In this document: positions 1,434 to 28,599 of the stretch, piece by piece | Position numbering within the stretch: the first letter of the stretch is position 1 | Layout: the number at the start of each line of letters is the position of its first letter | DNA from: an uncultured Bdellovibrionales bacterium | Lineage (GTDB): Bacteria; Bdellovibrionota_C; UBA2361; SZUA-149; CALKYB01 | Direction of reading: 5' to 3' | Assembly (NCBI GenBank): GCA_964510575.1 | Contig: CAZECN010000005.1 | Coordinates: 18,518 to 82,517, forward strand | DNA: 64,000 nt | Program-made: the position numbers and the translations under genes | The notes under the pieces: generated by a model | Told to the model about the DNA's origin: nothing | The model's input: only the letters and a program-made list of their open reading frames with translations | Database searches by the model: none

Positions 1434-1462
1434 TTATTTTTTAAATAATTTTGGAAAAATAG

Positions 1463-2739: not shown

Positions 2740-2756
2740 GCTTTTCAGGAGAGCTG

Positions 2757-2775: not shown

Positions 2776-2821
2776 AAATTTTGGTTTTGTTTATTGGATT
2801 TGATTAAAAGGGACTTTTAAA

Positions 2822-4351: not shown

Positions 4352-4379
4352 AGACTGTTTTTAACACAAGGTTGATCGC

Positions 4380-5399: not shown

Positions 5400-5400
5400 A

Positions 5401-6324
5401 ATGGACGCTAATCTAATAATATTTCTCGTCATAGGTATTTCAGTTATTGGAGTAGGTGTTTTTGCCTTCGTTTTTATTGGAGGTGATACCAATGCTCAGA
5501 AGGCTGGAATAAGAGATTTGATGGGAGGTATCGATCCAGATGCACTTTCTGCGGTTGGTGAAGATGCTGTTGATCCTTTCGATTTAGAGAGAATAAAGCA
5601 GAATACTGGTAGAGCAAAATCGGTAAAAAAGAAGGAAGACCTGCAGGCTAAGATGTTTAAGGCAGGGATTTTTTCTGCGAAAGAGCGGAAGAGGTTTAAT
5701 ACCATGCGAATGGTATGCCTGGTTCTATTTCCTATTGTAATTCCGCTTCTAATTTGGCTTGTTGTTCCTAAGCTGCAGCTAGTTATTATGGGTCTAGTTA
5801 TGGGTGTATTTGCCGGTCTGGTATACCCAACAGTGAAACTTGATAAGAAAATTGAAGCGAGGCAGGAAGATACTCTTTATTACTTGCCACTAGTAATTGA
5901 GCAAGTGTCGATCGGTGTTAGTAGTGCTCTGGATATTGGACCATGTATCGCTAACATTGTTAGCATGGCTAACGAAAGAGACTCTCACAATGCTGTCACT
6001 GAGATGCTGATCCATGTAGAAAAACTAATGCGTTCTGGACTTAATCTTGAGGATGCGCTTGTTGAAGTTGGAGAAGCCAGTGGTATGGGAGAAGTTAAGC
6101 ATGCCTTTATGTTTCTTGCCCAGTGCGCGAAGCATGGTGGAGAGATATCAAGACAGCTGCAAGAACTTGCTGATTCAGTGATGGTTCAGAGGCAGACCCA
6201 GGTTGAAGCTAAAATTACTGCTTTGCCAGTAAAAGCGACTGGACCTCTAGCGATGGTATTTGCTGGTTTCTTTGCGCTTCTTTTTGCAGGCCTTTTCGTC
6301 CGTCTGATGGGAGCTTTTGGCTAG
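5401..6324 (+). CDS. tadC: Tad pilus inner-membrane platform protein TadC (T2SS-F domain)
   Basis: Polytopic membrane protein with T2SSF-like region (LPLVIEQVSIGVSSALDIGPCIANIV...). Start lies 2 nt after the tadB stop. Confidence 0.75.
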   Translation: MDANLIIFLVIGISVIGVGVFAFVFIGGDTNAQKAGIRDLMGGIDPDALSAVGEDAVDPFDLERIKQNTGRAKSVKKKEDLQAKMFKAGIFSAKERKRFNTMRMVCLVLFPIVIPLLIWLVVPKLQLVIMGLVMGVFAGLVYPTVKLDKKIEARQEDTLYYLPLVIEQVSIGVSSALDIGPCIANIVSMANERDSHNAVTEMLIHVEKLMRSGLNLEDALVEVGEASGMGEVKHAFMFLAQCAKHGGEISRQLQELADSVMVQRQTQVEAKITALPVKATGPLAMVFAGFFALLFAGLFVRLMGAFG

Positions 6325-8734: not shown

Positions 8735-11380
8735 ATGAACATTAGTAAAGGTAAAAAACTCTTTCAAACCCGAGATAATGAGGGTTTTGAGGCTGTGCTT
8801 CCTGAGGGAGCACAAGATTCAGCTATTTTGTGGTCTCAGCGTCAAGCTTTGTCTCCTGATGCCGTGCCAGGTTTTGAAAAAAGAATCTCTTCTTTAGCTA
8901 ACTCTCGCCTACCTATCGCGAAGGTTATTGGTTTTGGGGTTGATAGTAAGAGTGAAGGTTGGGCCTTGACCGAAAAAATTAGCGGCGATGACCTTTTTGG
9001 CTTGAAGGGAAGTGAAAGGGAACGAGCTTTCGTAAGAGCTATACAAATTATTGCCGCTTTACATGAACAGGGTGTCTTGCTCGGTGATATTTGTGATGAT
9101 TCTTTTGTTGTGAATGAGTCGGGAGAGGTTTTTCTTCAAAGCTATTTCGGTGGATTTGATTGTACTCAAGAAAAAACGGCAATGATTCCTCCAAAGGAAA
9201 CATTGTACTACTTAGCACCGGAGCAGCGTACAGGAGGAACACCTTCTTATAGTAATGATGTCTTTTCCTTAGGTGTTCTTGGCTATAAAATGTTTACTGG
9301 TAGCTATCCAGGAAAAGCAAATGGAGTGGAGGGTGCTGATAGCATCACTGCCAAAAGTGTAGCACCATCCAGTGTCGATCCTTCGATTCCTGAGTGGGTT
9401 GATGATGTCATTAGCGATTGTCTGATTTCTGGACAGGCTGGACGGTTCCGTGATGCCTCTAAATGTGTTGAAATTGTAAAGAGGGCTTTGCAGTCGGGTG
9501 AACGTCCTGGAAGTAAAGGGAAGTGGGCTCAGGTTTTGTCTGACAAGATTGCAGATGCTGAGCCCCAGATTGGTGAACCTGACTCCCAGGCTAATCAGGC
9601 GGTTCTTGTGGATCCCCCAAGTGCGGGAGCTGAAAATATATCAGAGAGATCTTCTACAACAACTACTGGCCCTAATAGTTCAGCAATCGCTCTTGGAAAT
9701 GGCCCTGACGAACTTCCTGAAGAAAGATCATTGGTTAAAATGACTGATCCTGAGTTCGCTTTGAAAAGTCGTCGAGTGGATAATGACTTGGTTAGAAAGT
9801 CTAAATCTGAAGTTGGTAGTCGACAGAAGCAAAAAGCAAAAGCTGAAAAAGATTTTTATGAAGACGAGATGCAAGGAAGACAGTCTTCTTTTAGTTTTTT
9901 TGACATTTGGCGCATAGTTTCAACCTTAATATGTCTTTCTATTGTAGCGGCATTGGGATTGTTTACTTATAGGTTTATTTACGGAGATCTCAGTACAACT
10001 AAACTAGGCCAGGGGCTGGAAATTGATGTTGAAGCTGCGCCTCCGGCATTAAAGCCGTCCATTAACGATCTAAAGTCAGCAGCGGTCTCTGTTGAGGTTA
10101 AAAAAGATGCTTTGAAAAGAATTGCCGACTTTGACGATCCAGTATCGCATAACGTTTTAGTTTCTGTAATTTTGGAATCTGAGGATCCAGAATTGAAGAA
10201 ATTGTCTCGCGAGTTAGTTATTGATCGTCTCTCCAGGGGAGGCTTAAGTCGTTCAGCTAATTTGTTGGAGAATTGGTTTGTCAATATGAACAAGAGCAAG
10301 CGAAATGTTGATCAACATTTGGTGAATGTCTTGCGTGTTTTTGATCAAACTATTCCATTAGAAGCAAGGCAGTCTCGCTTGAGAGGTCTTTATGAAGAAA
10401 TGCCAGAGTTTGGCCTTCAATTCGCGGCTGCGCTTGGATTAGATACTGGTGGAGATGAGTCTTTTACTCCTTTACTTAGAGCTTTTGTTAAAGAAAAGTT
10501 TGGTTATTCTGATCTTGAAGATAAGAGTGTTTATGCCATTATTCTGTCCGAAGAATCTCTATTGAATCAGTTTGAAGGGGATCTTAAGAGCTTTCTGAAA
10601 GAGCTATCCGCCAACGATTTGGCTTGGGGAATGCTTTACTTAGCGAGGCAGAATAGCCTCACCCTTAAAGACGTGGCCAAGGAAGTTGGAATTAGAGAGG
10701 TAGTACCAAGATTTCAATCTGAATTTGTGGAGATGCTTTCGAAGTTGGATCATTTTCCTTTAGAGAAAAATGTAAAACTAGCGCTGGTTCGAGGTGCTCG
10801 TGGCGAAACTAAGCTAGATGACGTGAATGTTATTGGTCGATGGTATGATCAAAATGCGGAGCGTGCTCTGTTAGTGATCTGTGCTATTTCGAAAGATAAG
10901 AGGGTCAAAGAGCATGCATTTTCTACTTTAGCTGGACGGACTTTGAGTGCCGAGCCTGCTCGAACTTTAGTTGGTTGGGTTAAGAGCAAATATTGGGCTA
11001 GAAGGTCGCGTTTGGCTACACCAGTAGCTATTTTGTCTCTTCAAGACGTTTCTACTGAGCAAGATTTGCAAACTGCGTTTGATCAGTTGGCCCCGTATTT
11101 TTCTGGAAATACAATTTTTGATACTTTTGATAAGATCGGCGACTCCGCTCTAACTTTACTAGCACTAAGGAGAGTAGGTGCATCATTGCCAAGCCCGGTT
11201 TTAATTGAGCTACTTTCTAACAAGAAAAAAGAGGTTCGAATGGAAGCTGTAAAATCCCTTAGTGGCAGAAACGATTTAGCTGTTCTTCACGCGATCACAA
11301 AAGCGCACAGGAAAGAGAAGGATCCAGATGTTTTAGCCGCTTTTGAGGAACATCACTGGAATACTAGGGATCGATCTTAG
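8735..11380 (+). CDS. Transmembrane Hanks-type Ser/Thr protein kinase-like protein with degenerate catalytic motifs (probable pseudokinase) and C-terminal HEAT/PBS-lyase-like repeats
   Basis: The N-terminal ~260 aa carry the kinase C-lobe signatures LAPEQ (APE motif) and DVFSLGVLGYKMFTG (subdomain IX). The catalytic loop reads LLGDICDDSF instead of HRDLKPxN, and the DFG position reads YFG. A single TM follows (IWRIVSTLICLSIVAALGLFTYRFIY), then ~470 aa with HEAT-like repeats (e.g. KKEVRMEAVKSLSGRNDLAVLHAI). Confidence 0.6.
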   Translation: MNISKGKKLFQTRDNEGFEAVLPEGAQDSAILWSQRQALSPDAVPGFEKRISSLANSRLPIAKVIGFGVDSKSEGWALTEKISGDDLFGLKGSERERAFVRAIQIIAALHEQGVLLGDICDDSFVVNESGEVFLQSYFGGFDCTQEKTAMIPPKETLYYLAPEQRTGGTPSYSNDVFSLGVLGYKMFTGSYPGKANGVEGADSITAKSVAPSSVDPSIPEWVDDVISDCLISGQAGRFRDASKCVEIVKRALQSGERPGSKGKWAQVLSDKIADAEPQIGEPDSQANQAVLVDPPSAGAENISERSSTTTTGPNSSAIALGNGPDELPEERSLVKMTDPEFALKSRRVDNDLVRKSKSEVGSRQKQKAKAEKDFYEDEMQGRQSSFSFFDIWRIVSTLICLSIVAALGLFTYRFIYGDLSTTKLGQGLEIDVEAAPPALKPSINDLKSAAVSVEVKKDALKRIADFDDPVSHNVLVSVILESEDPELKKLSRELVIDRLSRGGLSRSANLLENWFVNMNKSKRNVDQHLVNVLRVFDQTIPLEARQSRLRGLYEEMPEFGLQFAAALGLDTGGDESFTPLLRAFVKEKFGYSDLEDKSVYAIILSEESLLNQFEGDLKSFLKELSANDLAWGMLYLARQNSLTLKDVAKEVGIREVVPRFQSEFVEMLSKLDHFPLEKNVKLALVRGARGETKLDDVNVIGRWYDQNAERALLVICAISKDKRVKEHAFSTLAGRTLSAEPARTLVGWVKSKYWARRSRLATPVAILSLQDVSTEQDLQTAFDQLAPYFSGNTIFDTFDKIGDSALTLLALRRVGASLPSPVLIELLSNKKKEVRMEAVKSLSGRNDLAVLHAITKAHRKEKDPDVLAAFEEHHWNTRDRS

Positions 11381-11401
11381 TTAGCGATTGGAATATTCTT
11401 A

Positions 11402-12793
11402 ATGTTTGCTTTAGAAATTGATTTTCATGATGGCGTTAGTAGTCCGGAAGTTCTGCTAATTAGAAGGCCAATTGCCTTGGTTGGCACTAGTGAGTTTGCC
11501 CATGTTGTAATCGATGGTGCTGCGGCTAATCTCGCTGAACTAAGAATTTTTCGAGAGATAGAGGGAGGATTTTCTTGCCAAGTGAATTCTCGAGATCGGG
11601 GAGCTGAAAATTCTAGAAAAGATGAAAGTTTTGATAAGTTTGCTAGGTTGGAACTTGGCGAAGTGACGACTTCAGTCACTTCCCTAGACTATGATCTTGC
11701 TGTCAGGCCGGAGGAGTCACCGGATAGTGCCGCGCTGAGAATTGCTCAAGAGGCTCTAACCAGCAGAGCACCTAAGCTTCCAGCATTGGCTTTGCTGGGA
11801 GCAAAAACTGTCTTTGTTTCCATTCTGGCGAATACAGGGGTGGTATTGGGCCGTTCAAGGAAGAGTTTAATTCGTTTAGATGCGCCTGATGTCAGTGGTG
11901 AACATGCCAGGATGGGTTATGACAATAATAGCTTTTGGATTGAGGATCTAGGGAGTACCAATGGTACTTTTGTCGAAGGAGAAAGAATTTCTGGTAGAGT
12001 TAATTTTATCCCTGGGCAGAGAGTGAGGCTAGGGGGTGAAACTGTAATTGGAGGAGTCGAGAAAGCGCAGGATGTGGAGCTTTATCGGAATATTGAAGGT
12101 GAGGCCAAGCAGGATGACCCTCGAGGCAAGTATCCTTGTGTTGTATCAAATTCCGAACTTATTAAACCGGCTCGTATACCTCTGGTTTTAGGTAGAACTA
12201 TTTCGATGGGAAGAGATCCTTCTAATGATATCTGGGTTGGAGCATCGCACATTTCAAGGAACCATTGTTATGTAACTTTCGAGGACAGTGGAACAGTTAG
12301 TGTCAAGGACGAAAGTTCCAACGGAACGTTTTTAGGTGAATCCAAACTCAACAAGGGAGAGGCTACTGACATTGTCTCAGATAATTCCATCATCCATTTA
12401 GGCTCAGAACTTTGTATTAAAGTTTGTTTTGATAAAGCTAGTGAAGAAACTTTTCTTGAAGAGCACAAGCAAATTGAGCCAGAGTTTGTTAAGGAATCAG
12501 ATATTAATGCGATGGAATTAACATCACTATCTGCTAAAGCAGTCAGCCCTGCCACAGACGATCCTGAAAACAGGATTGAAGGCGATGGGGTTTTTGCAAA
12601 GTTAGCAAGGAAACGTTCTAGTGAGTCTAATCTTTTGAACCCTGTTTTAGATCCTAACCGAATGCAGTCAAAGCTTAGCACTCAATCTATTCAGAGAAAA
12701 AACTCTTCTCGCCTTATTACTTCCCTAGCTCTTGTCTTTTGCATATTAATATTGTTGGGCTGGATTGCTTATAATCTTTACAGAATAATATAG
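11402..12793 (+). CDS. Multi-FHA-domain protein with C-terminal membrane anchor (SctD/YscD/CdsD-like cytoplasmic part, no periplasmic domain)
   Basis: At least two FHA domains (VVLGRSRKSLIRLD...GEHARMGYDNNSFWIEDLGSTNGTFVEGERI and LVLGRTISMGRDPSNDIWVGASHISRNHCYVTFEDSGTVSVKDESSNGTFLG), plus a degenerate N-terminal FHA-like segment. One TM sits at the extreme C-terminus (LITSLALVFCILILLGWIAYNLY). Confidence 0.7.
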   Translation: MFALEIDFHDGVSSPEVLLIRRPIALVGTSEFAHVVIDGAAANLAELRIFREIEGGFSCQVNSRDRGAENSRKDESFDKFARLELGEVTTSVTSLDYDLAVRPEESPDSAALRIAQEALTSRAPKLPALALLGAKTVFVSILANTGVVLGRSRKSLIRLDAPDVSGEHARMGYDNNSFWIEDLGSTNGTFVEGERISGRVNFIPGQRVRLGGETVIGGVEKAQDVELYRNIEGEAKQDDPRGKYPCVVSNSELIKPARIPLVLGRTISMGRDPSNDIWVGASHISRNHCYVTFEDSGTVSVKDESSNGTFLGESKLNKGEATDIVSDNSIIHLGSELCIKVCFDKASEETFLEEHKQIEPEFVKESDINAMELTSLSAKAVSPATDDPENRIEGDGVFAKLARKRSSESNLLNPVLDPNRMQSKLSTQSIQRKNSSRLITSLALVFCILILLGWIAYNLYRII

Positions 12794-13020
12794 AGCAAGG
12801 CTGCCTTCTTTAAGTTAGATAAAGTGATTTTTAGGCTTTAAACAGCTAAATTTAGCTAGAATTTCCCTGATTCCTAAAGTTTTTTTAATAGAATTTATTT
12901 GATAACTCTTCACTCCCGATGCATCTAAAAGTAGGGGAAAGTTTACTAGCCGGATCGCCTTTAATCCTTTTTGTCTTTTTCGACAATGTAGCGTGATGAT
13001 TTAACCACTTTGGTGTTTTT

Positions 13021-14142
13021 ATGAGTAATGAAGATACAGAGCTGACATTTGTTCGTTGTCCTAGTTGTAGGAGCTTAATACCTGCGATCGCAAAGCGATG
13101 TCGAATGTGTGGTCATGCATTTTCAGAAGGTGAGACTACTCCGACTGAGGAATCGTCAGAAGATTCCTCTAAGTCTAGAATAAGACAGCGTTCTTCAACT
13201 AATTTTATTGGCATAAAGGCACCCGCAGATGAAGCGGAAGTTGAGAAAAAAGAAAATCATCCAATCGAGGATGATAATGAGGGTTTGGATACAAATAACC
13301 CCGCCAGTGTAGAAGTAGATAACGAATGGTCTAGGCCCAATACCTCGAATCAATTTCTTAAGAGTTTTAATAGTTCTGAGAAAGTTCAATCACCGGAGCC
13401 TGTAGAAAAGCAGGAGAGAGCAGAGCAGGTTTCTGCTTCGGCGTCTCCAAATATGGAGAACCAGGAGGATTCCGAGCCCAAGAGAAAGAGAAAGAGAAGA
13501 CGAAGAAAAAGAAAGAAACCTGAGACAGAAACTGTTGAGGTTAAGTCTGAAGTCGAAAGCTCGACCGATGTTCAAGAAACGGAGGTAGAAATGGAAGAAC
13601 CGAGAAATTCAAGAAGGTTTTCTGAGGAGACCTCAGAAAGAGACTATCATAGTGAAGAAAATGACGCGGAGTTACCTGAACAAAATGCGGAACCTGCCTC
13701 AAGACCTCAACGAAGAACCAAAAGAGAGAGAGCGCCAATGAATAGTAATTCTTCTGACCTAGTTGGCTGGTTAGTCAACTTTGAAACGCCCACTGGTCAG
13801 GGAACTGAGCTGCGAGCCGGTAGATTTTTCGTTAGTTCAGAGCAAGTTAAGCCTGATGACCTAGTGCTTAATGATTCAAGTATCTCAGTTCCTCATTGTA
13901 TTTTTAAAGCCACCAAGGAAGATGGATTTAAAGTTCAAGATTTGATGAGTGAAAATGGAACTTGGATAAAGAAGGCCGGAGAAAGTGACTATAAAGAGTT
14001 GGTTGAAGCTCAGCCTGTTGAGCATGGAGACCATCTTAGATTAGGTGATTTCGAGGTATTGGTTTGCTTGATTCCTAAAGATAAAAAGAAACGCTCATCC
14101 AAAGCTTCAACAAGCAAGACAGTAGACAAGGAAGACAAATAA
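13021..14142 (+). CDS. Zinc-ribbon / acidic-basic low-complexity / C-terminal FHA-domain protein
   Basis: N-terminal CPSC...CRMC zinc-ribbon; highly charged disordered middle (KRKRKRRRRKRKK, E-rich); C-terminal FHA-like domain (ELRAGRFFVSSEQV...CIFKATKEDGFKVQDLMSENGTWIK...GDHLRLGDFEV). Confidence 0.6.
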   Translation: MSNEDTELTFVRCPSCRSLIPAIAKRCRMCGHAFSEGETTPTEESSEDSSKSRIRQRSSTNFIGIKAPADEAEVEKKENHPIEDDNEGLDTNNPASVEVDNEWSRPNTSNQFLKSFNSSEKVQSPEPVEKQERAEQVSASASPNMENQEDSEPKRKRKRRRRKRKKPETETVEVKSEVESSTDVQETEVEMEEPRNSRRFSEETSERDYHSEENDAELPEQNAEPASRPQRRTKRERAPMNSNSSDLVGWLVNFETPTGQGTELRAGRFFVSSEQVKPDDLVLNDSSISVPHCIFKATKEDGFKVQDLMSENGTWIKKAGESDYKELVEAQPVEHGDHLRLGDFEVLVCLIPKDKKKRSSKASTSKTVDKEDK

Positions 14143-14414
14143 TAGAGCCGAATAGGCGCTTTATCTAAATTAATTTGTCTAACTTAATTCGCCAAGATCG
14201 GCATATAGCAGCAGTTTGAGCTTAATTATAGTTGGTTGCACCGTTGGTGGTGCTATTGTAGCCTTTCTCTCAAGACTTAGCACATTCGCGCTATTGCTCT
14301 TGTCTTTTTGCATACAATTTCAAGAGAATTACTTGTTTATAGCGCAAGGCAATGGCCAAGAACATGACTTGGTCAACTAGATTTCTAGAGTTGAATATTT
14401 TAGCAAAACCCACC

Positions 14415-15275
14415 ATGAAAGTTTACCTGTTACTTTTTCTAATATTGGCAGCAAGCTCAGGTTGTAAACAGAACACTGAGTTGTTGAGCAGCTTATCTTC
14501 TAGAGAGTCTATCGAGGTACTCGTTCGCTTAGGCGAGATAGGAATTGAAGTTGAAAGAGTTAAAACTGGTGGAGCTAATAGCTCTTATAAAATTCAGGTG
14601 GCCCAAAGTCAGCATGCTCAAGCTTTAAAAGCACTTCATCAACTGGGCTTACCTCGAGCAATAAAAGATAGTTTAGATTCAATTACTAAACCTGCAGGGC
14701 TTATTCCCAATCCAGCTAAGATCTCTTCTTTGAGACTAGATCATGCTCTAGGGTTGGAGGTTGAAAGGTTGCTTGTTGCTTTACCGGGAGTGACAGAAGC
14801 TAAGGTGGTTGTCCGCTCAAACTTGGGTAGCAGAGACCTTGGTGATAAAACAGGAGGATCCTCTGCTTCAGTTGTCCTTCGTTACCTTTCCCGGACGGGG
14901 AAGTTTTCCTTGTCAGATGAAAGAGTAAAAAAGCTGGTAGCTAAAGGTGTACCAGATTTGAATGAAGAGTCGGTTTTGGTTGAAACTAGCCAGGTTTTTT
15001 TGTCTTCTGGAGCAACAGGTATTGGGGTAAGCGGAGGAGGTGAGGCTAAGGCCTTAAAGTCAATTTGGCCCTTCGGTATTGAAATTGCTGATGATGAGTA
15101 TACCAAGGCTGTGTATATGCTAGCTGGCTCAGGTCTTCTTTTCATCTTTTTAGGTTTGATTCTTGGTTATTTGCTATCTTCTACCTCTGGTAGACTGTTG
15201 TCAGGGGGAAATAGTAGAGCGTTGAGTAATGACAGAAAGAACCTTGAAAGAGGTACAGGGAATTTTTTAAGATAG
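14415..15275 (+). CDS. sctJ: T3SS inner-membrane ring lipoprotein SctJ (YscJ/PrgK/EscJ family)
   Basis: Lipoprotein-type signal MKVYLLLFLILAASSGC like YscJ; ring-building motif region (IEVLVRLGEIGIEVERVK...LEVERLLVALPGVTEAKVVVRSN); C-terminal TM (YMLAGSGLLFIFLGLILGYLL). Its ~290 aa size fits SctJ rather than flagellar FliF. The six-frame ORF begins at 14352; start chosen at the M preceding the signal peptide. Confidence 0.7.
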   Translation: MKVYLLLFLILAASSGCKQNTELLSSLSSRESIEVLVRLGEIGIEVERVKTGGANSSYKIQVAQSQHAQALKALHQLGLPRAIKDSLDSITKPAGLIPNPAKISSLRLDHALGLEVERLLVALPGVTEAKVVVRSNLGSRDLGDKTGGSSASVVLRYLSRTGKFSLSDERVKKLVAKGVPDLNEESVLVETSQVFLSSGATGIGVSGGGEAKALKSIWPFGIEIADDEYTKAVYMLAGSGLLFIFLGLILGYLLSSTSGRLLSGGNSRALSNDRKNLERGTGNFLR

Positions 15276-15318: not shown

Positions 15319-15546
15319 ATGCCAAACTTAAGTAAGTTTAGAGCCTTAACTAACCGTGAGCAGGCGGTGGTTGCGTTGGCTGTTTTGCTAGATGGCCACG
15401 ATTCTGTGGAGATGCTTGTAAGCGATAGGGATCGAGGAGTTGCTCTTTCTAGGGCGGCTGAGGATCTAGTTGTGCTATCGCCAGACTTGAGAATGCCCTT
15501 GATGGGAACTCTTCTGAGAAGGGCACTTGAAGAAATTGACACGTGA
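15319..15546 (+). CDS. Small helical hypothetical protein in T3SS gene string (function unknown)
   Basis: 75-aa ORF on the operon strand with protein-like composition. An antisense ORF (15282-15542) overlaps, so coding status is uncertain. Confidence 0.3.
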   Translation: MPNLSKFRALTNREQAVVALAVLLDGHDSVEMLVSDRDRGVALSRAAEDLVVLSPDLRMPLMGTLLRRALEEIDT

Positions 15547-15664: not shown

Positions 15665-16141
15665 TTGAGATCTAAGCAGAAATTAGAAGTAATACTTCGC
15701 TCTCTTGAGGTTGAAGAGAGAGGCGCTCTGGAAGAAAAACTTAGAATTGAAGAGATTGCAGATGCTCGGGTGAAGGGGTTGTCGGGCTTGGTCGAAGAAA
15801 GAACAGTTTTATATTCTAAGCTCGACGACCTTTCGCAGTCCCAGAAGCGGGCTTTGGTCGGGGGGAGTAAGGCTGTTAGTCCAGCTGAGATACAGGCTTT
15901 TAAGGGTAGAATAAACAAACAAATTGAAGAGTTGAAGGTTAAAATCGACAAAGCCGATGAGCAGTATAAATTAGCCCGAGAACGTCTGGAACTGGCTGAG
16001 AACGAGTTGTTAGAGGCTCGTATAGGCCGGAAAAAGGTCGAGAAACTTTTGGATTCCAAGAAAGCCCGAGAACAGGTAAAACAGGAGATGGTGGAGGAAC
16101 GGCTACTAGAAGAATATAGTAGCGGAAAAGTGCGCAATTAA
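15665..16141 (+). CDS. Coiled-coil T3SS accessory protein, SctO(FliJ)- or SctL(FliH)-like candidate
   Basis: 158 aa, almost entirely charged heptad-like coiled coil (EELKVKIDKADEQYKLARERLELAENELLEARIGRKKVEKLL). Position between sctJ and sctQ mirrors the sctL/sctO positions in injectisome operons. Apparent TTG start preceded by AAAGAGG. Confidence 0.4.
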   Translation: MRSKQKLEVILRSLEVEERGALEEKLRIEEIADARVKGLSGLVEERTVLYSKLDDLSQSQKRALVGGSKAVSPAEIQAFKGRINKQIEELKVKIDKADEQYKLARERLELAENELLEARIGRKKVEKLLDSKKAREQVKQEMVEERLLEEYSSGKVRN

Positions 16142-16155: not shown

Positions 16156-17214
16156 ATGTCTACAGTCGGAAAATTAGTCGGAAAAGATGCGAGTCCAATA
16201 CCCTGGTCCCCCAAGGATTTGTTGCCGACTCTATCCTCTAATCAAATTCGATTTAGCAGGGGGTTTTTGCGGAGTGATGTTAGTGTATGGCTTGCGGACT
16301 TTGTAAAGTCTTGGCAATTGCTTCTACATTCTCTTGGCTTAAAAGTTGAACTAAGTTCAGTCAATAATCAATTTAATTTTCCTGAATCTCTGAGTCGAGT
16401 GATACCCATTGAATTGGATGACGAGACTGCAGTCATTGGAATGGATGATGAAAGTCAGGAGATAGTTTCATCTGTAGTGGCGAAAGGATCTGAGTCAACC
16501 GCTGTTGATGTTATTGTCGAATACTTTGAACGTCGAATGCTTAGTTGTGTTAGTCAGCATTGGTCTGGTCCGATGCCTCTTAAAGCTAGGTATCTAGCAG
16601 ATAGTGAATCTACAGCGGTGGATGTTGTTGGTACCATTTGCTTTGTTTTTACCGCAGGAGGTAAAGACTTTAAACTGTGGCTTGGTTTAGGGCCAAGGGC
16701 TGTTGAGAGAATAGACGGCCTATGGAGAAAACAACTTTTTGAAGAAAAAAGTAATTTGCCCGGTCCGAAACTGCCTCAATTATCTACTGTGGATATAGAC
16801 TTAGTTGAGTTGCTTGTTCCCCCTGCTCTTTTAATTGACTACATGAGGAGTGGTACCGTGGTGGAGTTAGACCTTCCGACAAGCAATAAGGTTAGAGTGA
16901 ACCTGAACGGAAATTTCTGGGCTTATGGGCAGCTGGGACAGTTTGAAGGTAATTTCGCGGTTACGCTTGAGGACTTTGAGGCTAAAGAAAAGTCAGAAAA
17001 CGATAGCTCTAGCACAACCAAAGTTAGTGTTCAGCTTGCGGTTGAAGAAATAGATCGTGAGGCTGTTTTAGAGTTCGGCCAGGAGCAGTCTATTCTTTCT
17101 ACTCAAGTTGCAGTTAACGATAGAGCCAGTCTCATTATTAGTGGAGAAAGAGTTGCCTCTGCTATAATTGGCGAGTTGGATGGTAAGTTTGCTTTGACTG
17201 TGTTGCCGAAATGA
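16156..17214 (+). CDS. sctQ: T3SS cytoplasmic sorting platform/C-ring protein SctQ (FliN/YscQ SpoA domain)
   Basis: C-terminal SpoA domain: GTVVELDLPTSNKVRVNLNGNFWAYGQLGQFEGNFAVTLEDF, and a second SpoA-like segment DRASLIISGERVASAIIGELDGKFALTV. 352 aa. Stop overlaps the sctR start (ATGA). Confidence 0.7.
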   Translation: MSTVGKLVGKDASPIPWSPKDLLPTLSSNQIRFSRGFLRSDVSVWLADFVKSWQLLLHSLGLKVELSSVNNQFNFPESLSRVIPIELDDETAVIGMDDESQEIVSSVVAKGSESTAVDVIVEYFERRMLSCVSQHWSGPMPLKARYLADSESTAVDVVGTICFVFTAGGKDFKLWLGLGPRAVERIDGLWRKQLFEEKSNLPGPKLPQLSTVDIDLVELLVPPALLIDYMRSGTVVELDLPTSNKVRVNLNGNFWAYGQLGQFEGNFAVTLEDFEAKEKSENDSSSTTKVSVQLAVEEIDREAVLEFGQEQSILSTQVAVNDRASLIISGERVASAIIGELDGKFALTVLPK

Positions 17215-17888
17215 CAGTGTCTGAAATAATTGTTGGACTAGGGTATGATTTTCTTCCCTTAGTAAGCATAGGTTTCTTTGTTATTCTATTTAGCAGTTAC
17301 GTCAAAATATCTACAGTTCTATCTATTTTAAGATCAGGACTAGGGGCTTTTAGTATACCGTCTGCCATGGTTACTGGTTCTCTCGCTTTGGTCTTGAGCT
17401 TTTTTGTTATGTATCCGTACATTAATGAGGCTGCTTCTTCTATAGACAGGGTGGTAAGTTCCTCTGGATCGGTTAATTCTAGTGTTAGGGTTAAGGCTCT
17501 AGGAGAAGCTGGTAAGTCTTGGAAGAAGTTTTTGTTGAAGCATAGTGATCCGGAAGTGATTAGTGAACTTGCTACAATCGCCAATAAGATTGACGAATCG
17601 GCTGAGACTAAAGTAGCCGATAGCCTTGATACTAAGGAGCTTAGAGATTGGAGAATTTTGGCGCCTGCCTTTTATCTCTCTGAGTTAAGAGAGGCTTTCG
17701 CAATCGGATTGAGTCTCTTTTTGCCTTTTTTAGTTGTAGATCTATGCGTAGCTCATATTTTGGTGGCTTTAGGAGTGAATAAGGTTGATCCTTCTATGGT
17801 CTCTTTGCCCCTAAAACTCTTGCTTTTTGTTATGTTAGACGGATGGGCGTTGATCGCAGGAAATCTTCTATCGAGTTATGGAGGTTGA
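17211..17888 (+). CDS. sctR: T3SS export apparatus protein SctR (FliP family)
   Basis: FliP/SctR-like TM topology and conserved blocks (SIPSAMVTGSLALVLSFFVMYPY...AFAIGLSLFLPFLVVDLCVAHILVALGV...LPLKLLLFVMLDGWALIAGNLLSSY). Confidence 0.85.
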   Translation: MTVSEIIVGLGYDFLPLVSIGFFVILFSSYVKISTVLSILRSGLGAFSIPSAMVTGSLALVLSFFVMYPYINEAASSIDRVVSSSGSVNSSVRVKALGEAGKSWKKFLLKHSDPEVISELATIANKIDESAETKVADSLDTKELRDWRILAPAFYLSELREAFAIGLSLFLPFLVVDLCVAHILVALGVNKVDPSMVSLPLKLLLFVMLDGWALIAGNLLSSYGG

Positions 17889-18158
17889 ATGGACTTAAGC
17901 CTTGTAGTTGGAGCTTTGTCTGTTGTGGTCAATTTGACCATATGGGTATTCGCTGCTGCCCTGGCTGGAGGAGTTGTTTCTGGGATTATTAGAGTAGTTA
18001 CAGGAATGGAGGAGGAGATACTTAGTATTTTTTTTCGAGCCCTAGCTGTTTTTTTTCTTCTTTATATTTTTTCAGGTCCTGGATGGGAGGTCGTCTTGGA
18101 ATATACGGAGAGAATTTGGGGAGAGAAGAGTACCTATTCTTTCTCGACGGGTAACTGA
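17889..18158 (+). CDS. sctS: T3SS export apparatus protein SctS (FliQ family)
   Basis: 89-aa two-TM protein (LVVGALSVVVNLTIWVFAAALAGGVVSGIIRVVTGMEEEILSIFFRALAVFFLLYIF) typical of FliQ/SctS. Starts 1 nt after sctR. Confidence 0.8.
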   Translation: MDLSLVVGALSVVVNLTIWVFAAALAGGVVSGIIRVVTGMEEEILSIFFRALAVFFLLYIFSGPGWEVVLEYTERIWGEKSTYSFSTGN

Positions 18159-18167: not shown

Positions 18168-18887
18168 GTGAATAGCTTAATAGTCGCTGAAATACTTACA
18201 TTTTCTATCACAGCTTTTTCCTTGGGTTTTGGTTTTATGCCTAAATTCTCAAGGGCATCGTTTTTTGTAATTCTCTGTTGGCTGACTTTCCCTGCTGTTA
18301 TGGCCTCCTCATTGGCCTTGATTAGTGAACCTAAAAGCTTGGTTTTTTCAGGTAATTTTTCTGGATTGAGTAAGGGTTTTTTCTCCGGAGCATTGGCTGG
18401 CTTTATGGTTAGTGCTAGCGCTTGGGCTTCAATTATTTTTGCGGGTTGGGTCAACGCTGTTGTTTTCCCGAAAGATATCAAGGAGACAATTCTCTTGAGA
18501 GGAGATGATTGTCGAACAAGTTTATTCACCTTTTTGGGACTTCTTTTCTGCTTTTCTTTTTTTCAAAGTGACGCAGGTACTTCTATTGTTGTGGCTATGT
18601 TTGATTTATTGGAGAGCTCTAAAGGACAAGATCATCAGTTGTTCTTTAACCAAGGAATGTCGGTCATATTCTACCTATCTATATTGCTTTCTTTTCCTAT
18701 ATTTTTAGCTAGCTTGGTTGTGGATATCCTAATTTTTTTTCTTGAAAGGTTAGCTGGATTAGCGGTGGGTGAGGGCATATTCGGCGCGTTTCGCCTTCCA
18801 GTCATTTTGCTGTGTTTGGCTGTTTTTGTTCAATTAGCCCTTCAGGGTTTTGTCTCTGATGGATTTCATATTCTCGATTTTACATAG
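18168..18887 (+). CDS. sctT: T3SS export apparatus protein SctT (FliR family)
   Basis: 239-aa polytopic membrane protein of FliR/SctT size and hydropathy, in the canonical R-S-T-U position; GTG start. Confidence 0.7.
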   Translation: MNSLIVAEILTFSITAFSLGFGFMPKFSRASFFVILCWLTFPAVMASSLALISEPKSLVFSGNFSGLSKGFFSGALAGFMVSASAWASIIFAGWVNAVVFPKDIKETILLRGDDCRTSLFTFLGLLFCFSFFQSDAGTSIVVAMFDLLESSKGQDHQLFFNQGMSVIFYLSILLSFPIFLASLVVDILIFFLERLAGLAVGEGIFGAFRLPVILLCLAVFVQLALQGFVSDGFHILDFT

Positions 18888-18900: not shown

Positions 18901-19647
18901 GTGTCTGAAAAACGTTATCCAATTTCCGATTTAAAAAGAGAGAAGCTTCGTAAGGCAGGAGTTATTGCCTTGGGTAGAGAGCTAAGTGCTTTCGGGAGTG
19001 TTGTTTCCTTGGGATTGGTTTGTGGAGTTTTGTTGAGTAGTGGTTTGGTAGAGAGTGTTATAGAAATTTGGTCTGCGCTTGACCATGATGGTGTCTCGGT
19101 AGCTGTCGTTCTGCAAAAAAGCTTTTTATCAGCGACCAAAGTACTTTTCACATGCTTAACCATAGCTAGTTTTATTTATATTCTTGGGCACTTATTACAA
19201 AGCGGCTTTCTCTTCCAGCCAAGACTTCTGTTCTCAGGAGTCGCTGAGCGCCTTGGGTTTGGACGTCTTTTTAGCTTTAGCTTTACTGAAGGCCTATTTC
19301 TTTTGATTGCCTCTATCGTTTGGGCTGGAGTTAGCTATTTGACGGTAAATTTATTGCTGTATGAACTGAGTGAAATCAAACCAGATAGTTATTTTCAATT
19401 GGATCCCGTGGTATCCAAAGAAGTTTTAGCCGAACGTTTCGATTCTTTGATTGGACAGATTTTCCCGCTTGTATTTGGTGTTGTGGTTCTCGCGAGCTTT
19501 TTGTTTGGTGTCATTATTTTTTTGGTGAGGAAGATTGCTTTTGATGCCAAGCACATGATGACCAGGCAGGAGGTCGAGCAGGAGGCTAAGGAGTATGAAG
19601 TGGATCAAAACATGAAAAGAGCCCAGTATGAGCGGCGCAATTCATGA
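18901..19647 (+). CDS. sctU: T3SS export switch protein SctU (FlhB/YscU family), membrane domain only; C-terminal autocleaving NPTH cytoplasmic domain absent
   Basis: N-terminus (EKRYPISDLKREKLRKAGVIALGRELSAFG) matches FlhB/SctU; 4 TMs; ends ...MMTRQEVEQEAKEYEVDQNMKRAQYERRNS, equivalent to the FlhB linker MSKQEVKDE...KGRIRQ, then a stop. Only 248 aa versus the usual ~350. No NPTH-containing ORF in any frame downstream. Confidence 0.75.
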   Translation: MSEKRYPISDLKREKLRKAGVIALGRELSAFGSVVSLGLVCGVLLSSGLVESVIEIWSALDHDGVSVAVVLQKSFLSATKVLFTCLTIASFIYILGHLLQSGFLFQPRLLFSGVAERLGFGRLFSFSFTEGLFLLIASIVWAGVSYLTVNLLLYELSEIKPDSYFQLDPVVSKEVLAERFDSLIGQIFPLVFGVVVLASFLFGVIIFLVRKIAFDAKHMMTRQEVEQEAKEYEVDQNMKRAQYERRNS

Positions 19648-19758
19648 ACTAGATGGTATTGAAGAAAAGGCCACTTTTTACTGGACTATTATAGTGTTAG
19701 GTTATGGCCTTGAGGATAGCTCAATTTTTGGCAATTTAGACTTAATTAAATAGGTCTT

Positions 19759-20265
19759 ATGGTGGATGGTAAAGATAAAATTGAATCTAAGCAGACCTTG
19801 CTAACGGGACGTAAGCGATCTGTAAAAGTTTCTAATAAGAGTGAAACCCATCGACCTGAATCATTGGTCAAATCAGCTCCCTCGGAAGAATCTCAAGTCG
19901 ATAATAATGAGTTAGCTCGGTCTGAATCTCGTGAGGTGGTTGAGAAAGCCCCTCAATCTGCTCCACCTGCTGAAAGTAAAGCTTCGGCGGAGCCTGATCT
20001 AGCGGTTCCGAGTGCAGAAACTAGTTTCAAACCATTAGAGTTTTCAAAGGGTCAACAAGTTCGGGAGTATTCTTCGGCTAGCCCTCTTTCCATCTTATTG
20101 CCAAGAATTGGAGATTTGCGGGCACTTTCTCAGAATGAGGCTTTTTTAAATAATGCAAGGGAGAGTTTGAAGGATAGTTCAGCTAGTCGGGATAGAAATC
20201 CAATTACGGAAAGGTCGATGATTCAACAAGTCTTAGATTGGCTATCTATGGGGGAGCGCCAGTAG
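19759..20265 (+). CDS. Hypothetical Ser/Ala/Glu-rich, probably disordered protein (possible T3SS-associated substrate or regulator)
   Basis: 168-aa ORF on the operon strand between sctU and the TPR chaperone-like gene; low complexity, no recognisable domain. Confidence 0.4.
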   Translation: MVDGKDKIESKQTLLTGRKRSVKVSNKSETHRPESLVKSAPSEESQVDNNELARSESREVVEKAPQSAPPAESKASAEPDLAVPSAETSFKPLEFSKGQQVREYSSASPLSILLPRIGDLRALSQNEAFLNNARESLKDSSASRDRNPITERSMIQQVLDWLSMGERQ

Positions 20266-20277
20266 CTACTGTATCAA

Positions 20278-20673
20278 ATGAATGTTTACCCTCCAGAACT
20301 TTTAAAATCGATGTACGAACTAGGTCGAATGTATTTTGAAATGGGGTATTTTGCTCCTGCTGAAAAAATATTTCAAGGACTAGTCGCTGTAGATAAAGGG
20401 GAGACTCCAGCTCGGGTAGGCTTAGGTCTGGTTAAGATTGAGAGAGGTTTTTATCAAGAAGCAGCGATGAATTTTAGAAGTGCGATTCAAAAAGGACAAT
20501 ACCAGGTGCAGGCTAAAATAGGGATGGCCTTTTCTTTTATTGCCCAGAATGAGTTGTCTAGAGCCAGATCGATGCTATCTCAGATTGAAAATGACCATGG
20601 CGATAAGATCATGGAGGATCAAGGTATTCGAATTCTTTTTGAAGCTGCCTATATCCGATGCGAAAAGGACTAG
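20278..20673 (+). CDS. Small TPR-like protein, resembling class II T3SS chaperones (SycD/LcrH/CesD type)
   Basis: 131 aa, three TPR-like helical repeats (MYELGRMYFEMGYFAPAEKIFQGLVAVD...ARVGLGLVKIERGFYQEAAMNFRSAIQ...). Size and position at the end of the T3SS gene string fit a translocator chaperone. Confidence 0.4.
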   Translation: MNVYPPELLKSMYELGRMYFEMGYFAPAEKIFQGLVAVDKGETPARVGLGLVKIERGFYQEAAMNFRSAIQKGQYQVQAKIGMAFSFIAQNELSRARSMLSQIENDHGDKIMEDQGIRILFEAAYIRCEKD

Positions 20674-20927: not shown

Positions 20928-21130
20928 ATATACTCAACCCGACATGATCAAAAAAGGCCGAAATTTAAAGTAGGTTGAGTATATACCCCGTCTATTTTAA
21001 ATTCTGGCTTTTTCTGTGCCTGTAGTAAAGGGGTATAAACAGTGCGTAGCACTGCCAGACAACAGGTATACTGAAACCTCATTTAAGCTATAGCCAAACA
21101 CGATATTTAAGGTGGTTTCAGTATCTATTT
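20928..21130. repeat. Composite intergenic hairpin-repeat element (units with ATATACTCAACC/GGTTGAGTATAT, TATACCCC/GGGGTATA and GTATACTGAAACC/GGTTTCAGTAT arms); copy A
   Basis: 20975-21130 aligns almost base-for-base with the reverse complement of 40073-40380, apart from a 165-bp indel in the other copy. Multiple nested inverted repeats visible in the sequence. Confidence 0.7.
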
Positions 21131-21461
21131 AGTCTTTGTTCTCTTCATCCGACTCGTCTAGTAGAGAGGAATCTACAGCCATTTTTACTGCGGACTCTAC
21201 GGTTTTTCGTTGTTCTTCTGGTAAACCGTCTGGACCAAACATTTTTTCTGCTTCTTCATTGATTAAGGTGTGGAGCGTGTCGCGGTCCGCCGTGGTCATT
21301 TTTCGGCCGGCCTTACTTCCACCAGAAGTTTTAGCTTTTTTAGCTGTTTTTTCCACCTGCTGAGAGGAGCCAACCTTGCTGGTTTTGACCTCTTTGCTTC
21401 CTTCAACAGCTCCAGTACCTGAACCAATCTTGGGTCCTTTACCACCAATTTTCTTTACCAT
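21129..21461 (-). CDS. Lys/Gly-rich small hypothetical protein co-transcribed downstream of a sigma factor (anti-sigma factor candidate, unproven)
   Basis: 110 aa, overlaps the upstream sigma-factor stop by 7 nt on the minus strand. Disordered N-terminus, helical acidic C-terminus. Confidence 0.4.
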   Translation of the reverse strand: MVKKIGGKGPKIGSGTGAVEGSKEVKTSKVGSSQQVEKTAKKAKTSGGSKAGRKMTTADRDTLHTLINEEAEKMFGPDGLPEEQRKTVESAVKMAVDSSLLDESDEENKD

Positions 21462-22333
21462 GTTGCACCTAGCTGTTCGTAGTTAGAAAGGGAAATTAAT
21501 AGAAAAATAAAACCAGTTAATACAGCTGACGATCCACTTTGTTGTGAAGCAAATTTATTGAAAGGAGGTTCCGATTTGGATTTTTTCATTTTCATCGCAA
21601 TAGGTCTGAGCCCAGGTCGAATTTTTAACTTCTTTCTAGGCGCCTTGCCTTCGGAGACCATATAAAAAACATAAGAAAGAATTTCTTTGTGTTCTCGAAC
21701 TATAACTAACTCATCTAAGGACCATTCTTCCGCTAATTTTCTCATTGAAAGGTCTTTCCAATAGATAGCATATAGGATTTCTTGATGTACTGGTTCAAGG
21801 GCTGATAGTCGCTCGAGCATTTCGTTATACTCAAGAGCTATCGCAGGATTCTCTCGTCCACTTTGTTCAAATGCAGCGATGACGCTGGCACTCGAGAGCA
21901 TTTGTCTGATGGTGTTTCTAAGAGATGCACCTTCAGTATCTTCTTCATTTTTGACAAAACCAGACCGAAGTTCTGGAAAAACTTGCATTAACCTAGCAGA
22001 GACCTCTCTAGCAGTTTGTTCTTCTGGAGTTGCTGATCCAACCCCTTTTTGCCAACTTTTAGATTTTCTTGCTTCCTCAGTCGAGGCTTCGTGGATTCTT
22101 CTTCTAGCATATCCGCGAAAGGGAACTCCCATTCCAGGGTCGTAACGCTGTGCGCAAAATAGTAGACCTTCGTAAGCTCCGCCATCTAAGCCGTCTAATT
22201 GATAGTCCAGATTCCAGGCTCTTGCGACTGACTTTGCTATTGAAGTAGCCCAACCAAGATGGTCGTCCACTAGGAGCTGTATAAGATCCGAGCTACCGGC
22301 TGGAAAATTTTTGTATTCTTCTACTTTGTTCAT
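21455..22333 (-). CDS. Sigma-70 family RNA polymerase sigma factor (group 3, FliA/WhiG-like)
   Basis: Region 2 (YEGLLFCAQRYDPGMGVPFRGYARRRIHEA) and region 4 HTH (EILYAIYWKDLSMRKLAEEWSLDELVIVREHKE) recognisable; 292 aa. Confidence 0.65.
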   Translation of the reverse strand: MNKVEEYKNFPAGSSDLIQLLVDDHLGWATSIAKSVARAWNLDYQLDGLDGGAYEGLLFCAQRYDPGMGVPFRGYARRRIHEASTEEARKSKSWQKGVGSATPEEQTAREVSARLMQVFPELRSGFVKNEEDTEGASLRNTIRQMLSSASVIAAFEQSGRENPAIALEYNEMLERLSALEPVHQEILYAIYWKDLSMRKLAEEWSLDELVIVREHKEILSYVFYMVSEGKAPRKKLKIRPGLRPIAMKMKKSKSEPPFNKFASQQSGSSAVLTGFIFLLISLSNYEQLGATW

Positions 22334-22744: not shown

Positions 22745-23524
22745 ATGTCTACTAAGTTGAAAACAGTTTCCACGACCAGAAAGAAACCATCAGTGAAAAA
22801 GCAGAAGTATATTGATGAGTTGGTCATTAACCATAGAGAAAACGGTCGAAAGCTTGCCAGAAGTTTCTTAAGAAGGTGGCGAGTCAGAATGCCTCTTGAA
22901 GAAGTAGATAGCATTGTCGACCTTACGCTTTGCGAGGCAGCCGGACGCTACGATAAGACAAAAGGTGCTTCATTTATGACCTTTTTCTATTACCATTTAA
23001 GAGGTCAAATGGTCAGGGCTGTCGAAGGAGCTGCACAGCAAAGCTCGATGATGGTTAATTTTTCCCAAACTTCAGATCTTGATGTCACAGAATGGGCTCA
23101 ACAGGATTACGCCTTGAATTCTATGGTGATTTCCGAATCGATTTGCCCTGAAGGTTCTGGGGCTAGCACGCCTGAGCACGCAGCAATTAGAAAACAAAGT
23201 ATTGAAAAGTGTGTAAGAGCTTGTGACCAACTTGATGATTTAGAAAAAGAAATTATTTCCCGTTCTTATTCTAAAGACGAAGCCTTAGTAGATATTGCTA
23301 AGTCGCTTGGTTACAGCAGATGTCACATCTCTAGAGTAAAGAAAAGAGCCATGGTTCGGCTCAGAGAGATTCTGGAAGTCCAGGGTCTTGAAGGGACAGG
23401 AGCTCCACTTACTCTTTCTGAGACAGTGTCTGCTGAGAGGACGCCTAGGAAACGAAGAAGTCGAGTCCGCTCTAATAGAGTTTCAAAAACAAAAAAACCA
23501 GCAGCTATCAAAAGAGTTGCTTAA
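22745..23524 (+). CDS. Sigma-70 family RNA polymerase sigma factor (group 3/FliA-like), divergent from the previous one
   Basis: Region 2 (DLTLCEAAGRYDKTKGASFMTFFYYHLRGQM) and region 4 (EALVDIAKSLGYSRCHISRVKKRAMVRLRE); 259 aa. Confidence 0.65.
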   Translation: MSTKLKTVSTTRKKPSVKKQKYIDELVINHRENGRKLARSFLRRWRVRMPLEEVDSIVDLTLCEAAGRYDKTKGASFMTFFYYHLRGQMVRAVEGAAQQSSMMVNFSQTSDLDVTEWAQQDYALNSMVISESICPEGSGASTPEHAAIRKQSIEKCVRACDQLDDLEKEIISRSYSKDEALVDIAKSLGYSRCHISRVKKRAMVRLREILEVQGLEGTGAPLTLSETVSAERTPRKRRSRVRSNRVSKTKKPAAIKRVA

Positions 23525-27947: not shown

Positions 27948-28024
<77 letters not shown>

Positions 28025-28089
28025 TTTTCTCCCTTGTTTCTCATATTGGCTTGGAAGCTACATTCTGGCCTTTGTTATTGATATTTTTG

Positions 28090-28599
28090 ATGCAGGAACC
28101 TCGGCCTCATGGTACTTGTTTTGCCATGTACAACCCTTGGTCCCATTCATTACTAGCAGTGTTATCACTGCTTTACTTTCTTTCTCCAGTGGATCTGGTT
28201 CCTGATAGTAGCTTGGTATTTGGTTGGATCGATGATTTGGCTATTTTGGCCATAGCCTATTATCACTGGCGGTCTGTAAATAGTGGTTATTTCTTTGCTG
28301 ATGCCTCAGAGAGTAGCAGTAAAGCCCGCAGCTATTATAGCGAGAGTGATTATAGTGAACCTAAGGAAGACAGCAATAATAAGAGGGCTTCGAAGATCAG
28401 GGTGAGCTTGCCCGGTGACCCATATTTGGTTCTAGGGCTTCAGGCTCCTGCTTCTCAATCTGAGATAAAGAGGGCTTTCAAAAGACTGGCTATTGAGAAT
28501 CATCCTGACAAGTTCACTTGCACTAACTCTAAGTCCAAAGCGCACGAGCGAATGGTTAATATTTCTAAAGCTTACTCTCGGCTTAAGAAAGTCGGTTGA
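28090..28599 (+). CDS. Membrane DUF1232 (YkvA-like) protein with C-terminal DnaJ (J) domain
   Basis: LAVLSLLYFLSPVDLVPDSSLVFGWIDDLAILAIAYYHW (DUF1232); J-domain DPYLVLGLQAPASQSEIKRAFKRLAIENHPDKF. The six-frame ORF start at 27991 overlaps the tRNA, so the start was moved to an internal Met (28090 or 28126). Confidence 0.5.
   Translation: MQEPRPHGTCFAMYNPWSHSLLAVLSLLYFLSPVDLVPDSSLVFGWIDDLAILAIAYYHWRSVNSGYFFADASESSSKARSYYSESDYSEPKEDSNNKRASKIRVSLPGDPYLVLGLQAPASQSEIKRAFKRLAIENHPDKFTCTNSKSKAHERMVNISKAYSRLKKVG

Follow-up and report, generated by a model that had tools for sequence, protein, structure and literature searches.

A conserved short SctU homologue without the NPTH domain in a type III secretion-like gene cluster joined to Tad genes

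I found that the SctU/FlhB homologue encoded in a 64,000-nucleotide stretch of DNA from an uncultured Bdellovibrionales bacterium (GenBank assembly GCA_964510575.1, contig CAZECN010000005.1, positions 18,518 to 82,517; the whole stretch is hereafter called the window) ends after its membrane domain and a cytoplasmic linker. This protein of 248 amino acids (aa) belongs to a gene cluster resembling those for type III secretion systems (T3SSs) and lacks the NPTH domain. The short form of SctU is conserved throughout an uncultured lineage labelled Bdellovibrionota/Bdellovibrionales and is the norm for a large family, being shared by 92 of the 101 proteins found in a profile search. This truncation is genuine, of ancient origin, and maintained under selection. 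The short SctU is probably a functional gate subunit, with structural and gating roles, of a T3SS-like exporter of the inner membrane that has a single mode, is needle-less, and is linked to the Tad (tight adherence) system. Neither the prevalence of the short form in the family nor the contiguity with Tad genes could be seen in a preliminary description of the window, which was made from the sequence alone.

In known systems, the four-helix transmembrane (TM) domain of FlhB/SctU joins the FliPQR/SctRST core. The C-terminal domain autocleaves at the NPTH motif and, together with the ruler FliK/SctP, switches export from early substrates (rod, hook, and needle) to late ones (PMC7911332). SctU_C/FlhB_C with its autocleavage is regarded as a universal and essential part of the gate and as the seat of substrate-class switching (PMC7911332).

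Results

SctU ends at the cytoplasmic linker

The open reading frame (ORF) of the short SctU starts with GTG and stops with TGA, and the sequence AGGAG is read 10 nt 5′ of the start. The Pfam model PF01312 (Bac_export_2) matched the protein with an E-value of 2.7e-18 and 66.7 bits (gathering cut-off 24.4). The alignment spans SctU residues 3-245 and model positions 2-235 of 335; the remaining 100 or so positions of the model (236-335), which represent the NPTH domain, have no counterpart. The FlhB and SctU models of NCBIfam also align only at about positions 8-236 of about 345, and the scores lie far below the equivalog cut-offs (43.7 vs 358 bits for TIGR01404 and 43.6 vs 349 bits for TIGR00328).

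The end point was located by comparing a profile of the family with solved structures. The profile matched FlhB residues 16-249 (6s3l and 8z5s) and SpaS residues 8-236, with E-values of 1e-15 to 4e-25 for the FlhB/SpaS chains. Its last 30 or so positions also matched the first 34 or so residues in the crystal constructs of YscU_C and EscU_C. The linker HMMTRQEVEQEAKEYEVDQNMKRAQ pairs with MTKQEVKDEYKETEGKPEVKGRIR of FlhB and with the beginning of these constructs. By this alignment, the short SctU ends where the cytoplasmic linker helix ends, about 20 residues ahead of the NPTH position. The preliminary description had likewise placed the end of the protein after the membrane domain, at the FlhB linker MSKQEVKDE..., and had reported the absence of the NPTH domain; both statements agree with the reach of the Pfam model and of the family profile.

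An AlphaFold2 model of the short SctU, made with 51 family members, is all-helical and has a pLDDT (predicted local distance difference test) score of 90 and a pTM (predicted template modelling) score of 0.77. It consists of four long helices followed by two short C-terminal helices (residues 222-232 and 236-247). When the model was compared with the PDB by Foldseek, FlhB of the FliPQR-FlhB complex (6s3l_K) ranked first, with an E-value that was not significant.

The protein resembles canonical SctU/FlhB proteins (YscU, SpaS, EscU, HrcU, and flagellar FlhB) in its N-terminal motif, four TM helices, TM2-TM3 cytoplasmic loop, and linker (H.MTR.EVE.E.RE.E...). Its gene also has the usual place after sctRST, and sctR, sctS, sctT, and sctU are contiguous on the plus strand. 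Unlike the canonical proteins, it lacks the entire C-terminal alpha/beta NPTH domain of about 100-130 residues. It is therefore a homologue of SctU/FlhB in which one of the features that define the family is missing.

No C-domain follows the gene

The preliminary description had given the coordinates 18901-19758. The ORF accounts for the part up to 19647 on the plus strand, while the rest of that interval is a spacer of 111 nt. The spacer had been described as rich in stop codons in all frames and as lacking any NPTH-like motif downstream. This was borne out: a three-frame translation of positions 19500-20300 gave several stops per frame between 19648 and 19758, and no NP[TSE]H motif was present in any frame downstream of sctU up to position 20300.

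A hidden Markov model (HMM) of the C-domain was built from 17 full-length FlhB/SctU sequences and used to search all stop-to-stop ORFs of at least 30 aa in the window and in 48 fetched loci, which cover about 10 kb on either side of each relative. As a positive control, all five full-length flagellar FlhBs of the control loci were found (E-values from 1e-37 to 1e-49). Nothing scored better than an E-value of about 1 in the window or in the related loci L001 to L012. A C-domain encoded elsewhere, which the preliminary description had named as an alternative, is thus excluded within the range of this search, namely the window and the related loci.

The spacer contains a block of 13 nt, TTATAGTGTTAGG, at positions 19689-19701. 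The identical block occurs in the spacer of L001 (about positions 10826-10838), whose SctU is 51% identical to that of the window. The block is preceded by AAAAG.C..CTTTTT, and the rest of the two spacers has diverged. It may be a promoter for the two genes that follow, encoding a conserved protein X and a TPR protein, or an RNA element. A simple scan of the spacer found neither a sigma-70-like promoter nor a terminator on the plus strand.

Relatives share the end point

A word-indexed protein search revealed a sole close relative, P0001, which is 51% identical and lies on a marine metagenome contig of 277 kb. Its SctU ends at the same position (...QYERSVG, compared with ...QYERRNS in the window), and the surrounding cluster is fully syntenic. 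A second word-indexed search with SctU gave three short relatives. A separate fragment, P0003, is independent metagenome sequence from a near-identical strain (79 aa with one substitution) and has the same ...QYERRNS end. A scan of genome contigs with the SctU alignment gave no confirmed relative.

I then performed an exhaustive profile search with the SctU family against 1.84e9 representative proteins. Among the 101 hits, the 92 short ones are 200-300 aa long, and their C-terminus lies a median of 30 residues (range 17-58) beyond the linker motif M[TS]xx[EDQ]. Six full-length hits (347-369 aa) were found at the bottom of the ranking. The linker motif was located in five of the six, where it is followed by 132-144 residues.

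The end point was also examined with the family HMM on six-frame ORFs. In the window and in the related loci L001/L002 (one sequence), L003-L008, and L010, the gene stops about 1-10 residues past the last aligned position of the HMM (247-250 of 251). Eight syntenic relatives that differ in sequence, and L049 with the same short-SctU arrangement, thus share the end point, at SctU identities of 23-51%. The proportions of non-synonymous and synonymous differences (pN and pS) in sctU are 0.34 and 0.79 between the window and L001, and 0.25 and 0.72 between L003 and L010. Thus synonymous sites have reached saturation, and non-synonymous change has stayed limited. The linker, represented by the last 45 columns of the alignment, is the most constrained part of SctU (pN of 0.19 for the window and L001 and 0.12 for L003 and L010).

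Recent decay of a normal SctU of about 350 aa into a pseudogene, or a frameshift introduced in sequencing or assembly, is excluded because the relatives have the same stop and pN is well below pS. Assembly errors do occur in such data, as in the metagenome-assembled genome (MAG) locus L009, where a frame break within sctU (5441-6285) is probably a MAG error. However, the same stop recurs in assemblies made independently and in relatives with as little as 23% identity, no frame downstream has coding potential for a C-domain, and the AlphaFold2 model is confident, so that the chance of a frameshift or pseudogene is negligible.

Two loci differ in their arrangement. The locus of GCA_041443065.1 encodes an SctU of only 194 aa and has a 131-aa gene in the position of SctT. 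In L056, a methyltransferase gene follows sctQ in place of sctRSTU.

A T3SS-like cluster runs on from Tad genes

The features of the window are listed in Table 1. All core T3SS proteins score below the NCBIfam equivalog cut-offs, and they score slightly better on Sct models than on flagellar ones (for example, SctV 511 bits vs FlhA 482 bits). For these two reasons, the locus is suggested by sequence comparison to be a deep-branching T3SS family. The SctT orthologue in L003 matched PF01311 with an E-value of 4.5e-6 and 26.9 bits, slightly under the gathering score of 27.8. The 75-aa ORF between sctJ and sctO keeps its position in all relatives (74-79 aa) and matched no protein family model. A typical SctD has a periplasmic ring domain, and none of the kinase-like/HEAT and FHA proteins encoded at 8735-14142 resembles it.

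Table 1. Positions of the genes and other features in the window
Feature	Position	Strand	Length	Description
Tad-like block	1-6324	+		
CpaE-like	to 935	+		Cut by the window start
Flp pilin	about 1248-1433	+		
CpaB/RcpC	1807-2739	+		
CpaF	2822-4351	+		ATPase
TadB	4380-5399	+		
TadC	5401-6324	+		
SctV/FlhA	6476-8680	+	734 aa	Export-gate protein; PF00771, E 1e-165; under both SctV and FlhA NCBIfam cut-offs
Kinase-like/HEAT protein	8735-11380	+	881 aa	Pseudokinase; one predicted TM segment
Double-FHA protein	11402-12793	+	463 aa	YscD-cytoplasmic-like; tail-anchored, C-terminal TM at 434-463
Zinc-ribbon and FHA protein	13021-14142	+	373 aa	N-terminal zinc ribbon; without TM segment
SctJ	14352-15275	+	307 aa	Inner-membrane ring lipoprotein homologue; PF01514, E 6.3e-10; TIGR02544 (YscJ), E 1.6e-28
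Conserved ORF	15319-15546	+	75 aa	Between sctJ and sctO
SctO/FliJ	15665-16141	+	158 aa	Stalk homologue; PF02050, E 5.7e-9; YscO weak
SctQ-like protein	16156-17214	+	352 aa	FliN/SpoA C-terminal domain; PF01052, E 7.9e-12
SctR/FliP	17211-17888	+	225 aa	PF00813, E 5.7e-50; NCBIfam SctR models outscore the FliP model
SctS/FliQ	17889-18158	+	89 aa	PF01313, E 1.1e-5
SctT/FliR-like protein	18168-18887	+	239 aa	Polytopic membrane protein; position between SctS and SctU; TM segments
Short SctU/FlhB	18901-19647	+	248 aa	Four-TM gate domain and linker of about 30 residues, without NPTH/C-terminal domain; PF01312
Spacer	19648-19758	+	111 nt	Stops in all three frames
Protein X	19759-20265	+	168 aa	Conserved; variable disordered N-terminal part, conserved C-terminal part of about 70 aa
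TPR protein	20278-20673	+	131 aa	LcrH/SycD- and CdsG/SctY-like T3SS chaperone candidate; position kept in relatives
Neighbouring ORF	21129-21461	-	110 aa	Overlaps the end of the 292-aa sigma-like gene
Sigma-like protein	21455-22333	-	292 aa	Weak region 2
FliA/ECF-like sigma	22745-23524	+	259 aa	ECF, extracytoplasmic function

No secretin, SctN, SctL, SctF needle, SctI inner rod, SctP ruler, or translocon was recognised by sequence models in the window or within 10 kb on either side in the relatives examined. An ATP-synt_ab-type protein and FliH/SctL were likewise not found in the window or the relatives. These results support the earlier suggestion of a simplified, non-switching, and needle-less apparatus, in which no needle, ruler, inner rod, secretin, or SctN can be recognised.

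The gap between tadC and sctV, which lie on the same strand, is about 150 nt. Is this junction conserved? The Tad genes run into sctV in five of the five lineages examined, with SctV identities down to 39%. The five are the organism of the window, the BBAY59 contig from a macroalgal surface, GCA_046328905.1 (named Bdellovibrionota bacterium), GCA_964509425.1, and GCA_041443065.1; the junction is present in the window, in the loci L050, L052, L053, and L056, and in that of GCA_041443065.1. Genes for a Ser/Thr kinase and a PP2C phosphatase lie upstream of the Tad genes, beyond the start of the window. The order of the super-locus is kinase, CpaE, Flp, CpaB, CpaF, TadB, TadC, SctV, pseudokinase, FHA proteins, SctJ, SctO, and SctQ, and then SctR, SctS, SctT, short SctU, X, and TPR protein. 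No Tad secretin (CpaC/RcpA) or prepilin peptidase was found in the window or in the 10 kb upstream in the five lineages; both may be encoded elsewhere. The window lies on a 164.8-kb contig of a deposited MAG, which carries P0120. The genomes nearest to it are also MAGs, and their labels are Bdellovibrionales, Bdellovibrionota, Oligoflexia, or Deltaproteobacteria. A genome scan based on SctR recovered no locus of Myxococcota.

Protein X, the TPR protein, and the neighbouring genes

The gene for X always lies directly after the short sctU, and the TPR gene always comes next (in L001, L003-L008, L010, and L049). X varies from 95 to 206 aa in these relatives, and its C-terminal part contains the conserved motif PL[SA]VLLPxLGxL ... 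E.SML.QVLQWLSxG. No match to X was found among PDB sequences or in Pfam. I also considered whether X is a diverged SctU C-domain; this was ruled out by hhalign, which gave a probability of 0.1% for X against the C-domain. X is a candidate substrate or regulator, and X and the TPR protein may be a substrate-chaperone pair.

The 110-aa ORF and the two sigma-like genes keep their order next to the cluster in the relatives. They could include a sigma factor and its anti-sigma factor, with a link to secretion. Elsewhere the window carries housekeeping genes (lipopolysaccharide core synthesis, MetH, SerA, BipA, and RNase PH). The sole Rfam match in the window is a tRNA gene at positions 27948-28021. 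It overlaps the start of an ORF at 27991-28599 encoding a DUF1232/DnaJ protein, and the true start of this ORF is probably further downstream.

Discussion

A probable gate without a switch

What would a T3SS gate do with such an SctU? The short SctU keeps the N-terminal motif, the four TM helices, which wrap the SctR5S4T1 core in FlhB/SctU, and the conserved linker helix, and it ends ahead of the alpha/beta NPTH domain. Since the parts that are kept form the gate and the part that is lost is the switch domain, a structural and gating role without switching may be assigned to it. It would lack the functions of SctU_C, namely autocleavage, docking of early substrates of the needle, rod, and hook type, and switching triggered by the ruler. 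The SctRST pore would be closed and regulated by the short SctU, whose linker probably still touches SctV. Such an exporter would have a single substrate mode with no hierarchy of substrate classes to manage, and I infer that export proceeds without class switching. Early substrates and a ruler are likewise not recognisable in the locus, and a single-mode gate is the most economical reading. The activity of the exporter may be controlled by phosphorylation through the Ser/Thr kinase, PP2C, and FHA proteins, and the exporter may work together with the Tad/Flp platform, by analogy with Myxococcus Kil and T3SS*. Both ideas are suggested by the fixed adjacency to the kinase, PP2C, FHA, and Tad genes.

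Several points weigh against this role. In Salmonella, FlhB without the C-domain reportedly gives no export, and a gate that works without the C-domain would need compensating changes. A C-domain encoded elsewhere in the genome, or a flagellar FlhB_C that is shared, is possible, as the search covered the window and the related loci. The absence of needle, ruler, and rod means that sequence models did not match, and such proteins are small and fast-evolving. In addition, X and the 75-aa ORF are both conserved at the locus and match no known family.

Other explanations of the short SctU

It is conceivable, but unlikely, that the control exerted by SctU_C has been taken over by non-homologous proteins, either X and the TPR protein or the module of FHA proteins, pseudokinase, kinase, and PP2C. 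In that case phosphorylation or a new adaptor, instead of autocleavage, would gate secretion. X, the TPR protein, the two FHA proteins, the membrane pseudokinase/HEAT protein, the Ser/Thr kinase, and PP2C are all fixed in position across the family, and the FHA proteins have YscD-cytoplasmic-like domains. However, this argument is purely positional, and none of the proteins resembles SctU_C. Such a replacement is also compatible with a single-mode gate and not exclusive of it.

Alternatively, the gene may be split, with an orphan FlhB_C-like NPTH domain encoded elsewhere that joins the short SctU in trans and retains switching. Cleaved FlhB_CN and FlhB_CC stay together, separately expressed FlhB fragments can complement, and some bacteria have small stand-alone FlhB_C-like proteins of the YlqH type. 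In favour of a split gene, the C-domain search extended over no more than 64 kb of this genome and some 10 kb on either side of each relative. Nevertheless, the HMM that finds every control FlhB gave no match in the window or the related loci, and the tightly conserved gene order holds no candidate. The protein breaks off about 20 residues upstream of NPTH and not at the cleavage site, and the adjacent conserved X is unrelated to the C-domain. A split gene is improbable.

Finally, the T3SS-derived genes might be relics that no longer export, or be repurposed to provide the Tad machine with a scaffold or sensor in the inner membrane. No genes for the SctN/SctL ATPase, a typical SctD, or outer-membrane parts were seen near the locus, and sctRSTU does not follow sctQ in L056. 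On the other hand, the five gate proteins as well as SctJ, SctO, and SctQ have been kept under constraint in roughly 90 sequence clusters. Type III export is driven mainly by the proton motive force, with the ATPase facilitating it, and T3SS gates can export without the ATPase (PMC7911332). Such a loss of export is therefore quite unlikely, and a functional, naturally short SctU in a single-mode exporter is preferred.

Comparison with known systems

A close parallel is the needle-less T3SS* of Myxococcus xanthus (MXAN_2434-2464), which works with the Tad-like Kil system in predation; the Kil and T3SS* loci are unlinked (PMC12075869, PMC10433427). Like T3SS* and the 'Myxo' group of non-flagellar T3SSs (NF-T3SSs) of Abby and Rocha (2012), the present locus has gate and sorting-platform genes and lacks a secretin, needle, and translocon (PMC3459982, PMC10433427, PMC12075869). 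LcrH-like TPR chaperones and FHA proteins are also common to T3SS* and this locus, as is a Tad-like association, which is functional in Myxococcus and seen here as gene contiguity. In contrast to Myxococcus, Tad and T3SS genes here make up a single, contiguous locus. SctN, SctL, SctD, and SctI are encoded in the T3SS* cluster (PMC10433427), whereas none of them was seen here, and the FHA proteins are tail-anchored or soluble rather than typical SctD. The host labels also differ: they are Bdellovibrionota, Bdellovibrionales, or Oligoflexia here and not Cystobacterineae, to which the joint presence of Kil and T3SS* seems confined according to a 2025 review (PMC12428579).

Two high-GC soil metagenome contigs (L054 and L055) carry minimal sctQ-R-S-T-U-V loci among housekeeping genes. 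They resemble the 'short' Myxococcales locus of Abby and Rocha and encode full-length SctU proteins with NPTH (333 and 346 aa). The sequences of these two loci hint that Myxo-type systems keep the SctU C-domain.

The upstream genes are those of Tad/Flp systems, with Flp pilin, CpaB, a CpaE-like protein, CpaF, TadB, and TadC immediately upstream of the T3SS genes on the same strand. Unlike in Tad/Flp systems, the CpaC/RcpA secretin and the prepilin peptidase are missing from the region searched.

Engineered C-terminal truncations and NPTH mutants of FlhB/SctU in Salmonella, Yersinia, and Xanthomonas define the functions that the short SctU lacks, namely autocleavage, docking of early substrates, and ruler-dependent switching (PMC7911332; PMC3040844, PMC3052322). 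Those are laboratory loss-of-function variants, whereas the short SctU is a natural and conserved architecture. A literature search of incomplete coverage turned up neither a natural SctU/FlhB family that lacks the C-domain nor a T3SS in Bdellovibrionota.

It is possible, although doubtful, that the Tad and T3SS-derived genes of this Bdellovibrionota-labelled lineage encode one composite envelope machine. Its stripped-down gate (SctV, R, S, T, short SctU, J, Q, and O) would have no switch domain, needle, or secretin, and possibly no ATPase of its own. The gate would feed a single protein class to the Flp/Tad platform, or be gated by it, under the control of Ser/Thr phosphorylation. The machine would be an independent, fused counterpart of Myxococcus Kil and T3SS*.

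A natural family that lacks SctU_C while its membrane domain and linker remain constrained separates the structural and gating role of SctU from its switching role. The family also provides structural and mechanistic studies with a minimal gate. The cooperation of needle-less T3SSs with Tad pili is a question raised by Myxococcus predation, and the contiguity with Tad genes in every lineage examined makes it directly approachable. The locus would extend the co-occurrence of Tad and T3SS-like systems beyond Cystobacterineae. If the composite machine exists, it would show by a natural example that type III export can do without SctU_C.

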